Source: Octopus vulgaris
Taxonomy: Eukaryota
Reading direction: 5' to 3'
DNA: 64,000 bases
Assembly: GCA_951406725.2 (NCBI GenBank)
Contig: CATOCA020000001.1
Location: 1,302,001 to 1,366,000, forward strand
Below the pieces are notes generated by a model. It ran no database searches. It saw only the letters and a program-made list of their open reading frames with translations, and was not told the DNA's origin. Position numbers and translations under genes: made by a program. Positions 3,483 through 53,530 of this stretch are shown in pieces; position 1 is the first letter of the stretch; every line of letters begins with the position of its first letter.

Positions 3483-3560
3483 GCGGTACATATGTTTCGG
3501 GCCTTTATTAGACAGATTTATAACAATGCATAATGTATGTCTGTGGCTTTCTTCAGCCGC
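3483..3560 (-). ncRNA. Type I hammerhead ribozyme-like motif (inverted twin of 5867-5944)
   Basis: Reverse complement reads GCGG-CTGAAGA-AAGCC..GGCCC-GAAA-CATATG-TA-CCGC. Confidence 0.65.
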
Positions 3561-5866
3561 GCACAACAACTTCTTCCACAAGGACATGTGTTACATCAAA
3601 AATTCTTGGTTGGGGATGCAAATCCTCTCATTCGCGTACGACATAATGCGGCAACAGCATAGAATTGAAGCGTCCATCTCGTTCTTCTCTCAATGTAGAA
3701 TGAGGAAATTTGGATGTTGAAGTAATGTAAATAAATTAATAAATAAATATATACATATATAGGTATATAAATGCAGATAGACGTGAAGTGACCTGGTAAT
3801 AAGAGTAAATAGGGGTAAAGATGGAGGGGCGAGAATTCAGGACGAAGGATAAAAAATATATAAAAAAGTGTAAGTATAGAAAAATATAAAAGTGTAGAGT
3901 ATGAAGATATAAAGAGATATAAGGAGATATTAAGGGGATATAAAGAATATAAAAAAATATACATGAATATAAAGGTATAAAGTTATAAAAGTAAAAATAG
4001 AAATAGAAATAAAAGTAAAACTAGAAGTAAAAATAGAAATAAAGAATAGAAATAAAAATAAAAATGGGAATAAAAATAATAAAAAATGTAAAAGAATATA
4101 AGGATAAGGGATTATAGTGGATACGGACCAGACATGGTGGTCAGGAAAATGACAAAATCTAGTTGTAGCAGTTTTGGGTGTCAATAAATCAACAGTGGTG
4201 TCTGGGGACTTAGTGTATTGTAAATCAGAGTTGTTGATCAGCTAATCTAGTTTCTCGAATTAAGTGGTCATCATGTACATACATACCCGCATGGGTACAT
4301 ACACCCATATACACGCGCACATATACGCACGCATACACAGCTCCAAGCATATAAGCATACATACTTACTCACGTGTGAACATATACAGAAACACATATAG
4401 ACACCCGCACACATGCGCATATATACATACATACAACAGAATATGCGTATATATACACGGACATTATACGCGTACATATACATATATACATATATACGCA
4501 CACACGCACATACACGCATACATGTACACATACACATATGTATACATATATGCACATGTATACATATACATACATACACCCATGCACACACCTATATATA
4601 CATACGTACGTCCATCTTTACATACACATACACAGATGCCCACACATACAGGTTTAGATATAAGATATTAAAAGATGTATATAAGAACGCATGTAAAGAA
4701 CCACGCACTCGCGTCTACATGTACACGCACACACAACTGTGTGTCTATATGTGCGTGTACACATACACTTACATACACATACAGAGACAAACGCGCGTAT
4801 AGGTATAGCTATAAGATATTAAAAGATGTATACAAATATGTGCATATAAGAAATCTGCGAAAACATGTAAAACAACATGTAAAAAATTTTTTTAAATTAT
4901 TAAAGAAAATTCTTAAAGAAAATTCTTAAAGAAGAGTAACGGGGTATGCACATCCAGACGTAGATGTTTACTCGTACATACGTACACATATGTATACGTA
5001 TACACATGTACACGGACGCACGTATGATCATAAAGCGGATCCATAGATATGTAAATAGGGGAAAATCAAAAAATAGACGTATATAGAGATATAAAGTGAT
5101 AAGTTAGGGGTAAAAATAGGGGTAAGAATGAGGGTAAGAATAAAAATTAGAAATAAAAGTAAGAAATACAATATAAAAAAGAAATACAATATAAAAGTTA
5201 GAAATAAAGTATAAAAATTATAAGAACTATAAGAATTAAAATAAGGAATGAAAATAAAAATAAGAATAAAGGTAAAGCGAAATAGAATAGGATAAAGTAA
5301 AAAAACAACATAATCGGGTAAAGCTTAACATGAGATGGAGGAAAAAAAATAAAAGGTGGTTGAATATATACGTACACACACACACACATATACACACATA
5401 TATATATATATATATATATATACATATATATATACACATACATACGGGCACATATAGGAAAGCGGGATGCGCTGGAGCCGACAGGTTGCACCGTGTGGGA
5501 GGAAATTGCATGGGGGAGTTGGTATAATAGCCTAAGCTTTGTAGTATTTGAAAGTATTAATAAGTTTGTGTATACAGGATAGTTTGAACTCCGACCTTTT
5601 GTTAATAAGGTTGTGTTTGTCTTTGAATTTCAAGATATTCAGGAGTTCTACACAACATAGTTGGCATCCTGCTCTATTATATATGTATATATTTATTTAC
5701 ATTACTTCAACATCCAAATTTCCTCATTCTACATTGAGAGAAGAACGAGATGGACGCTTCACTTCTATGCTGTTGCCGCATTATGTCGTACGCGAATGAG
5801 AGGATTTGCATCCCCAACCAAGAATTTTTGATGTAACACATGTCCTTGTGGAAGAAGTTGTTGTGC

Positions 5867-5944
5867 GCGGCTGAAGAAGGCCACAGACATACATTATGCA
5901 TTGTTATAAATCTGTCTAATAAAGGCCCGAAACATATGTACCGC
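5867..5944 (+). ncRNA. Type I hammerhead ribozyme-like motif
   Basis: Stem I GCGG/CCGC, core CTGAAGA, stem II GGCC/GGCC with long insert (ACAGA/TCTGT), GAAA, palindromic CATATG, GUA cleavage triplet. A-C mismatch at the base of stem II. Confidence 0.75.
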
Positions 5945-6007
5945 TGAATCCTTGGCATCATATTTTATTTTGATCAATTTATATATATATATATATATAT
6001 ATATGTG

Positions 6008-6195
6008 CATACATACAGACATACATACATGCATACATGCATGCATACATACATACATACATACATACATACATACATACATACATACATACATGTATAC
6101 ATACATACATACTTACATATATACATACATATATACATACATACATACATACATACATACATACATACATACATACATACATACATACATACATA
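6008..6195. repeat. (CATA)n microsatellite
   Basis: Direct reading. Confidence 0.95.
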
Positions 6196-8552
6196 CGTGT
6201 GTATGTGGTTTTTTATGCGATTTTAGATCTGCGAGCCTTTGAAACTTTGCGTCCTCGAGTAAAACGAATTTGACTTTTGAAATCCGATTTCCAAGGTAAA
6301 CATCGTCCATAAAATAGAATAAATGTCATAATCCTCCACGTGAAATAACCCAACTTTAAGATCTCAACCTCCCTCACTATATCTTTCACTACCCATGTAT
6401 CTTATATTTGCCATACTATTTGATGCTCTCTCTCTCTCTCACTCTCTCTCTCTCTCTCTCTCTCGCTCTCTCTCTCTCTCTCTCTGTGAATTAAAAACCA
6501 ATCATTGCTTTCATTTTGTTTAAAATCTCTCCTACTTCTACTTTATGATACAAGTGTTCACACACAAACAGCTTAGCTTCCAAATCTTGTTTTCTGGGTA
6601 AAAATGATAAAACTTCGAACCTCTGATGTGTTTTCTAAACTTTTTCTCGAATAAACGAATAAATTTCAAAATTTCCACATACTTTTCAAATTTCAAATTC
6701 TGTGACACGAATCGAAAAGTTCGCTCTCTAATTGCTTATTTCTTTTCATTTCTCATAGTAAACCTTCTCACACATTATGAAAGTTTACCGCTCACACTAA
6801 GTGCATGTCGTGTTCCCAATGTGTGTCGTGTTCCTAATATATATATATAGGTGTGTCTGCGTGTGTGGATGTAAGAATGAGTGCGTATTTTTGTGCGTTA
6901 TTGTGTGTATACGTATGTGCAGAAGAATTATATTCATATACTTAAATATGTATATATATATATATATATATATATATATATATATATACATGTGGAATTA
7001 AGAGTTTAATTATAATGTCTTCACTTACCTGAAGAGTAGCTATATATCATTAGATCGAAGAAATATTAATTTTTCAGATTATCGATTTTGATAATGTCGA
7101 TTTAAATATATCGTCACGAAACGCATCTCGTTGATTTAATGTGCGAAATTTAGTATAGTATGTTTCAGTATATTATTAATAATATATTTATATTTATATT
7201 TTATTATAGATAATATTTTTCAATATTAATTGAATTACTTTATGGAGGGTCTGTCTCTTAATTATACATATATATATATATATGTGTGTGTGTGTAAATA
7301 CACCTATATATATATATATATATATATACATGCATACGTATATCCATGCATACCAGTATATATCATATATACACATTCACACACATGCACTCACACATAC
7401 ATATATATATAGTGAATATTATCTTCCAATTCTTCAAGTCATTAATCAGCAACCATGCTGGCAACCCTCCTAGAAGGTATTTTATTCGAATATATTCTCC
7501 ACGGTATTTAAAGTTTGAAAGTCTGTTACTTATTATATCGTTCTCTTTTGAGGAACTGTTAAGTTATGGGGGCGGAATATCTCAAGAGACTAATACAACC
7601 ACAATGATTAAAGCTCACACACATACACATACACCCATGTATATATGTATATACATAAGACAGGCCTCTTTCAGTTTCTGACAACAAAATCTACTCCTGA
7701 CACGAGTATATAGAATTGGACACTTGGTGAATGCATCACGTATTAACACTGACCCCTACTCCTTGTGGTTGCAAATCAAGCTTCTTATTATGCAGACACG
7801 CCATTGATTTTATACACACATACATTTATATAGATATACATATATATATTTATAATGTATGTATATATATATATATATATATATATATATATATATATAT
7901 ATATATATATATACATATATATATATATATGTATATATATATGTATATATATATATATATATATAAAAATATATATAAATATATATTATCCTGCTTTAAA
8001 CACCTACACATTGGACTTACACTTACTACTGCCTGAACTTTCTGCATCTCTCCGTTTCTACACTTCTGCACTCTACCCGATTGCCACTGGATATAATTAT
8101 GGATTTCACGGGACTCATCTGTTAATGAAAAATCCCTCCAATACACTACAACTTTTAATCCTTTTTGAACTTCTGTTTTTTTCCTCATTTTCTTTATTTT
8201 GACGATCGTAAGCTCGAAACGTAAAGCCCTTTCTCACTTTTCGGAGTTTCAAACTAATACACACATTGTTCATATATCTGTGTTCGTCTTTTGTTTTTCT
8301 GTAAATTTCAACCTTGTTTATATATGTATATAGATAGATAGATAGATAGATAGATAGATAGATAGATAGATAGATAGATAGATAGATAGATAGATAGATA
8401 GATAGATAGTTAGATACATTTGTGTACATTTAAACACATAAGAGGTATCCGTCATAGGATTCCTGCACGCTAGAAGGAACAGCTAAAATCAAAATCGCTA
8501 TTAGGGATAATCATTGCAGGGAATGAATATTATAAAACATTTACCTCTATCT

Positions 8553-52748: not shown

Positions 52749-52900
52749 GTTCAATCTTCTTTTTCTCTACATTGTATACTTTATAGACAATAGTCTTATC
52801 TTTAATTTAATTTTCTGTTATCCATTTGGACTATTCCATTTCTGCACGCTAATTTTATTTTTATTTTATTCCCATTCATGTGAAACCACTTATTCAAGTT
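52749..52900 (-). pseudogene. Old Tx1-family ORF1 relic, upstream half (insertion host)
   Basis: 52800 to 52750 reads DKTIVYKVYNVEKKKIE, compared with RKRIIYKTYNITTKSIQ (A) and RRTIKYKVFMNGGRKME (B). Confidence 0.7.
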
Positions 52901-52919
52901 CAAGTCATTGATGCAATTT

Positions 52920-53428
52920 TATACCAATTGCTATTCTTATTTTTGTTATGTTACTTTAGTTTGATTTTCATTATTACTTACAACATATGATTCAATTGTT
53001 ATTATTATTTTTATTGTTAAAGTGAAAGTATCTGATATAAAATAGAGAAACGTTTTTGTTTCACTTTTAACACGTAATACTGAAATTGTGGAGAAGATAT
53101 GATATTGCTATGGGCTCGCTCTAGGCAAGAAGTTGAACATTTTCTTGCCCATGAAACTACGTGGACCCTAAGTAAGGCATGTGTAAAATTTGAAAGGAAT
53201 TGGTTGTGTAGTTCTCAAGTTTTAGGGAATCGTAGTGGAGAAGATATGATATTGCTATGGGCTCGCTCTAGGCAAGAAGTTGAACAATGTTTTTGCCGAT
53301 GACACTCCCCGGACCCTAAGTAAGACATGTGTAAAATTTGAATGAAATTGGTTACGTAGTTCTCAAGTTTTAGGGAAACGCACAGACAGACAGAGAGACA
53401 CACATTGTCAGTTTTATATATATAAAGA
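52920..53428 (-). mobile_element. Non-autonomous Helitron 5' part with internal ~147-bp tandem duplication
   Basis: Minus-strand A|TCTTTATATATATAAAACTGACAATGTGTG start; repeat units begin at 53088 and 53235. Confidence 0.65.
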
Positions 53429-53482
53429 TATATACCTTTCCGATGGGTATGAGTAAGTATTTCACTTATATCTCAAGTATTT

Positions 53483-53530
53483 GCCGCTGAAGAGGGGGAA
53501 ATTCAATGAATTAACCCCCAAATCGGACCA
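53483..53530 (+). ncRNA. Decayed hammerhead-like motif
   Basis: CTGAAGA-GGGG(GAAATTC/GAATTAA)CCCC-CAAA-TCGG; GAAA and stem I are mutated. Confidence 0.35.

Follow-up and report, generated by a model that had tools for sequence, protein, structure and literature searches.

Type I hammerhead ribozymes with a palindromic stem III, for which cleavage as dimers has been proposed, have already been published for Penelope-like elements (PLEs) (PMC4209133; reviews PMC6765202, PMC7761336). In such a double hammerhead each core takes the cleaved strand from its partner, so that stem I is intermolecular as well (PMC4209133). PLE insertions have been described as using (TA)n targets, as having a tail on one side and as including inverted copies truncated at the 5′ end, and in the Hydra clade, where the octopus family Hydra-1_Obim is listed, CxxC and CxH flank the conserved E and N of the endonuclease (PMC8557442). 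Here we analyse hammerhead-like motifs in a stretch of 64,000 nucleotides from Octopus vulgaris (contig CATOCA020000001.1, positions 1,302,001 to 1,366,000, forward strand), which is called the window and in which all positions are counted from the first letter. The motifs are genuine and beyond chance, and are mostly fossil PLE hammerheads of the known kind. As an overall explanation we favour, with good though incomplete confidence, that they are hammerheads of truncated PLE ends, the palindrome of which is likely kept for cutting as a double hammerhead.

Hammerhead motifs in the window

The following motifs, and insertions carrying them, have palindromes of six nucleotides in stem III (position and strand of the core or half-site in brackets).

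3483..3560, minus strand: type I hammerhead, core intact (3556-), CATATG, stem II region of 51 nt; 3′ end of a Hydra-like PLE copy
5867..5944, plus strand: type I hammerhead, core intact (5871+), CATATG
12480..12722, no strand assigned: fold-back with 98% arms, GAAA-CATATG-TA half-sites (12648+ and 12553-) lacking a convincing 5′ core
12935..13011, minus strand: 5′-truncated relative of the 5871 family, 82% over 79 nt, without 5′ core (12981-)
20611..20715, plus strand: decayed hammerhead candidate, core intact (20615+), CAATTG, stem II region of 78 nt, no contiguous pairs in stem I
33423..33508, plus strand: type I hammerhead (33427+), stem I of 4 bp, stem II of 4 bp plus insert (59 nt), CGATCG
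33838..33939, plus strand: type I hammerhead (33843+), stem I of 5 bp, stem II of 5 bp plus insert (73 nt), CGATCG
36409..36712, no strand assigned: fold-back with 80% arms, decayed hammerheads (36524- and 36599+), CAGCTG, both stems II decayed
41320..41381, plus strand: type I hammerhead, core intact (41326+), stem I of 6 bp, interrupted stem II (31 nt), CGTACG

All palindromes listed in a preliminary description of this DNA are present at the positions given there, and they are far more frequent than expected. A 6-nt palindrome of the form C..G, flanked by GAAA and TH, occurs 9 times, while 200 local dinucleotide shuffles gave a mean of 0.275 and a maximum of 2. Among the GAAAC-N4-GTH sites of the window, N4 is palindromic in 9 of 13; after two inverted twins have been dropped, this holds for 7 of 11 independent sites, where 1/16 is expected (p ~1e-6). 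Strict full descriptors find complete hammerhead folds at 2-3 sites, while the reversed window has 0 and none of 40 shuffles has more than 1. A simple count of CTGANGA-N5-35-GAAA (19 observed, 5 expected) was discarded, being inflated by duplicated transposon coding DNA.

CUGANGA, GAAA and UH, in type I order, are unaltered at 5871+, 3556-, 41326+ and 20615+, and the core carries a single change at 33427+ (A13>G) and at 33843+ (A9>G). Both arms of the 36.5-kb fold-back have a C at position U4, which is a known natural hammerhead variant (PMC3088659). From predicted pairing, three helices can be formed at 5871+, 3556-, 33427+, 33843+, 41326+ and at 3093+, a motif described below. Helices fail at 20615+ (stem I) and in the fold-back arms (stem II), and at 35928+, also described below, stem II is weak with 1-2 bp. 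An intact core is combined with three helices only at 5871+, at its inverted twin 3556- and at 41326+.

Stem II had been said to carry often an insert of 30-80 nt. This describes five of the eight motifs having both halves, with 51, 78, 59, 73 and 31 nt between the end of CUGANGA and GAAA, but not the remaining three, where the span is 8-21 nt. The inserts of the long motifs are predicted to form hairpins of their own. In plants, PLE-X elements are recorded as having long loops 2 (PMC8557442 File S2). We also considered the long-stem-II motifs as ends of the published Naiad consensus sequences and rejected this, as five 8-nt stem III strings gave 0 matches in the supplement of PMC8557442, where line breaks could hide matches.

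PLE open reading frame (ORF) remnants are found 200-2000 nt upstream of motifs in three cases, 3093+, 35928+ and the pair 3556-/5871+. These remnants, together with the palindromes in 11 related loci considered below, support the link between PLEs and type I hammerheads with a dimer-type stem III on which the preliminary description had been built. The pair represents inverted twins from a single insertion event, which has left the following features.

3446..5981, no strand assigned: a single PLE insertion, its ends being inverted copies of 304 nt (3446-3749 and 5678-5981, 98%); (TA)n flanks
5535..5678, minus strand: putative remnant of a Hydra-type GIY-YIG C-terminus, showing CxxC, E, N and CxH in the expected pattern; located where the inverted parts join

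The insertion has a one-sided tail. By eye, its 48-aa remnant agrees with the Hydra rows of Fig S7 in PMC8557442, and no reverse transcriptase (RT) is left. With phmmer the remnant has one relative, P0041 (47% identity, E 1.7e-7); the repeat protein P0040 also matched and was dismissed as a chance match, and a word-based protein search with the remnant returned no matches. The element appears to have in common with the Hydra-clade PLE hammerheads of PMC8557442 the (TA)n targets, the CxxC/CxH endonuclease end and a self-complementary stem III of 8-10 nt. From Hydra-1_Obim, as given there, it differs in its hammerhead, in the 51-nt stem II region and in the distance of ~2 kb from ORF end to ribozyme. 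This intervening stretch (3750-5530, minus strand) is rich in simple repeats and unusually long for a PLE 3′ untranslated region.

The 5′-truncated relative at 12981- retains CATATG inside an invariant block of 18 nt, while the 3′ strand of its stem I differs from that of the 5871 family. The fold-backs at 12.5 and 36.5 kb appear to fit the signature of PLE insertions. At 25446-25922, 36711-36877 and 8422-8756 there are other inverted or fold-back structures, of a shape typical for insertions of the PLE type, but without a clear hammerhead.

As a group, the motifs share with the metazoan PLE pseudo-LTR (long terminal repeat) hammerheads of PMC4209133 the type I order, a stem I of 3-6 bp, the palindromic stem III and the proposed dimer cleavage; dispersed 5′-truncated and opposite-strand copies and many families per genome are likewise common to both. 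They differ from the motifs of that study, where stem III usually has 4-6 nt and up to 10 in a few, in that most have a perfect palindrome of 8 nt, and in the 31-78-nt stem II of five motifs.

The A3-U8 core pair of the Neptune-type copies

Two further PLE copies in the window are each followed by a small hammerhead.

1039..2886, plus strand: decayed Neptune-type PLE ORF with RT, CxxC linker and GIY-YIG; stops and frameshifts; six-frame reading, 38-72% identity to P0003 by tblastn
3087..3126, plus strand: small type I hammerhead with A3-U8, core at 3093, stem I of 6 bp, stem III GCATGG, one change from a 6-nt palindrome
34127..35619, plus strand: decayed Neptune-type PLE ORF with RT, CxxC linker and GIY-YIG; sister of the 1039-2886 copy
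35923..35957, plus strand: small type I hammerhead with A3-U8, core at 35928, 4/5 pairs in stem I, stem III CCGG

P0003 carries RVT_1 and GIY-YIG. A CX2-5CxxC linker, RT and, at the C-terminus, GIY-YIG with CCHH could be read in both ORFs, and Neptune and Nematis were not told apart with reference sequences. The 34-kb ORF has 39 PLE RT-GIY-YIG relatives, the sole animal-named match being Octopus bimaculoides. The two copies are sisters (support 100/98) in a tree that was built from 22 of the 25 rows; L017, L018 and L020 of the loci introduced below were left out for low coverage, and as the central node was unsettled, tracking of palindromes on this tree was not counted.

The hammerheads lie 207 and 309 nt behind the two ORFs and have A3-U8 in place of C3-G8. 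The one at 3093+ had been absent from the preliminary description, and the CCGG site at 35943+ is not a half-site, as AUGAAUA, a variant 5′ core, precedes it at 35928. The two motifs both have a paired stem I, formed by different sequences, and stem III differs as well. A short-spacer A3-U8 descriptor, a pattern picked post hoc, finds exactly these two sites, compared with a mean of 0.02 in 100 shuffles. Two other matches were rejected, a third A3-U8 match at 1072 because the DNA there codes for RT, and a G3-C8 match at 54006 because it does not exceed chance (7 of 100 shuffles). Caveats are that both copies are decayed, that stem II has 1-2 bp and that neither motif folds as a hammerhead alone.

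Outside the window, 23 loci (L001-L023) encode relatives of the Neptune-type ORF, and these were scanned for hammerheads with no palindrome condition imposed. A hammerhead adjoins the ORF in 11 of the 23, and all 12 sites have perfect 4-nt palindromes, of 7 different sequences. With these loci of the Neptune clade (as defined in PMC8557442) the Neptune-type motifs of the window share a short stem II (7-14 nt, as opposed to the 31-78 nt of the five long motifs), GAAA followed by a short palindrome and UH, and a location 100-600 nt behind the ORF. They differ in the core pair: A3-U8 occurs in none of the 23 loci, all 12 hammerhead sites being C3-G8, whereas both window copies have A3-U8.

One of the loci, L001, is a Neptune-type PLE that is complete and whose two pseudo-LTR hammerheads (L001:58 and L001:3757, CCGG) lie in direct orientation ~3.7 kb apart, a tandem arrangement that would allow a dimer in cis. 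L021, L022 and L023 are animal PLE sequences in contigs labelled as bacterial (SUP05, Sedimenticola, Rhodospirillales), which probably represents host contamination. A search of viral contigs for PLE relatives found none.

A natural core pair U3-A8 has been published for PLE hammerheads (PMC4209133), as opposed to A3-U8 in the window, and Watson-Crick swaps at positions 3-8 can keep activity, as stated for covarying pairs (PMC3088659). A literature search for a natural A3-U8 pair, which did not cover all key papers on hammerhead variants, found none. Judged from sequence, an octopus Neptune-type PLE lineage may have fixed A3-U8 and retained this pair through changes in the palindrome and in stems I and II, which would make these motifs an active class missed by CUGANGA descriptors; we put this forward as a serious possibility that falls somewhat short of a likelihood.

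Why stem III is palindromic

According to the explanation that we favour, several PLE families would have left truncated copies, most of them dead, with type I hammerheads remaining at their 3′ ends. A double hammerhead able to cut would form when two copies of one element pair with each other, probably within a single tandem transcript; stem III would be kept palindromic because this pairing needs it, and the differences between families would come from drift under the constraint to stay palindromic. Cleavage, use of the dimer and the origin of the family differences by drift are inferred here. Predicted energies agree with pairing between copies: as a monomer, the 8-nt stem III consists of 2 bp and a tetraloop at +2.4 kcal/mol, while the cognate duplex of two copies reaches -10.5 to -15.2 kcal/mol (no initiation term). 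A tetraloop would be unconstrained in the monomer, yet it is palindromic at 7 of the 11 independent sites, which favours the dimer, as does the covariation in the 11 related loci, where the palindrome is kept through changing sequences.

Several observations weigh against this explanation. Leaving 3093 aside, six of the nine insertions that carry a motif are without an adjoining PLE ORF, so that we infer their family, and 12 of the 23 related loci are without a detectable hammerhead, including L003, L020 and L023 with more than 500 nt behind the ORF. When the motifs are folded alone, most minimum-energy folds are not hammerheads, and none exceeds its shuffles by much in stability (z +0.9 to -2.0). 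Moreover, in invertebrate retrozymes, hammerheads whose stem III has 2 bp and a tetraloop cleave as monomers (PMC7229834), and for this reason dependence on the dimer is not certain. Finally, with samples as small as these, a weak effect of the barcode kind considered below could have escaped notice.

That the motifs are chance matches in repeat-rich, AT-rich DNA is very improbable. Four sites (7029, 8618-, 12062 and 53487) that had been described as decayed hammerheads and that have only partial features are indistinguishable from chance, a loose descriptor giving 442 matches in the window and 398 in the reversed window; chance possibly accounts for the 12648 half-site, too. An Rfam scan of the window gave 0 matches at gathering score and, at E up to 10, a single one (33837-33940, Hammerhead_1, 20.3 bits, gathering score 34); long inserts and short stems lie outside the model. 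At the main sites, chance is contradicted by the strict descriptors, by the palindrome enrichment and by the location behind PLE ORFs. It is also unlikely, though less remote, that the long-stem-II motifs act as monomers, with a 2-bp stem III, a tetraloop and tertiary contacts from the insert, so that the palindrome would be optional and the dimer a second mode. The monomeric hammerhead is the minimum-energy fold of the 5871 motif, the stem II inserts carry their own hairpins, and the retrozyme hammerheads just mentioned provide a precedent; however, a monomer would leave the tetraloop free in spite of its frequent palindromes and would have to rely on a stem III of positive predicted energy.

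The preliminary description had proposed that the palindromes serve as a barcode, selection having driven them apart so that co-resident families cannot cleave one another's RNA via mixed dimers. We consider this improbable. The 64 kb do hold CCGG and five different 6-nt palindromes, and non-cognate stem III duplexes are predicted at only 0 to -7.1 kcal/mol, well above the cognate range. CATATG has been kept by the 5871 family in its 82% relative (one family, two independent insertions). Sequences also differ between the sister Neptune-type copies (CCGG against the near-palindromic GCATGG) and between L007 and L010 (GGCC against GCGC), which are weakly supported sisters from one assembly. Yet unrelated families share palindromes: CGATCG is common to 33427 and 33843, between which blastn detects no similarity, and CATATG to the 12648 half-site and the 5871 family. 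Such collisions are at chance level, with 2 sharing pairs among seven families where random draws from 16 palindromes give 1.32 (1 against 0.94 without the half-site), a comparison of low power; among the 11 hammerhead-bearing related loci, 5 of 55 pairs share a palindrome and random draws give 3.4. Sharing has been published, too. By our by-eye count in File S2 of PMC8557442, the same stem III/loop occurs in 5 and the same stem I in 6 of 14 families of Hydra magnipapillata, and families 1 and 3 of Aedes have both stems in common (PMC4209133 Fig S3).

Stem I alone would separate the families. Between 33427 and 33843, stem III is predicted at -14.1 kcal/mol, equal to the homodimers, but stem I has 0 contiguous cross pairs and reaches -4.6, compared with -13.2 and -16.2 in the homodimers. 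As both stem I and stem III are exchanged between partners in the dimer, specificity for the family is expected as a by-product; it would arise from stem I and from proximity in cis, with no need for a selected code. No relevant paper emerged from a literature search on hammerheads that form heterodimers or dimerise in a family-specific way. The claim that differing palindromes insulate co-resident families is not supported. A barcode would have meant a self/non-self code among transposons, and the data give no support for it.

A retrozyme-like unit, other transposons and implications

The hammerhead at 41326+ is part of a non-coding element that resembles a PLE-mobilised retrozyme.

40834..41671, plus strand: non-coding element bordered by (TA)n runs; unit of 563 nt, direct repeat of 170 nt, inverted 5′ piece

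A protein family scan of the element gave no match. Its predicted fold reaches -159 kcal/mol on the hammerhead strand and -107 on the opposite strand. The fold of the 563-nt unit has a z of -6.5, which is not unique in kind, as 3 of 16 control tiles were at -4.6 or lower (8 shuffles each). The element shares with the metazoan non-LTR retrozymes of PMC7229834 its non-coding nature, the low GC content (33%), the partial tandem, the type I hammerhead and the well-paired predicted fold. Unlike those, its unit has 563 nt rather than 170-400 nt, its stem I is short and without evident loop-loop contacts, and it comprises only 1.3 units.

The surrounding DNA is rich in microsatellites and full of transposons, with ORFs of long interspersed nuclear elements (LINEs), Helitron pieces, a Tc1/mariner transposase and PLEs. 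LINEs with APE-RT ORFs occur at 37369-40499 and 42300-45198 (plus strand) and at 46055-49453 (minus strand), and two of the three are uninterrupted; a short tandem tail near 40570 closes the first. The Helitron (Rep and PIF1 pieces) is present in two copies of 94-98% identity, at 14250-18167 and 53819-56866, with a decayed piece near 31370. A Tc1/mariner element at 18935-20514 has an open 339-aa transposase frame and inverted ends of ~200 nt, and the pol region of a decayed Gypsy-like LTR retrotransposon covers 27300-30330 on the plus strand (RVT_1 match 28918-29259). A search of sequencing runs with 26000-33200 listed no RNA data set, which counts neither way.

Searches for these ribozymes would gain broader descriptors from a likely natural A3-U8 pair and from the long inserts in stem II. 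If the A3-U8 lineage is real, PLE hammerheads, the long-stem-II forms included, would be under-counted in such genomes, and some PLE families taken to be without hammerheads may carry them. The A3-U8 and long-stem-II motifs would also offer test cases for the role of PLE hammerheads in vivo.

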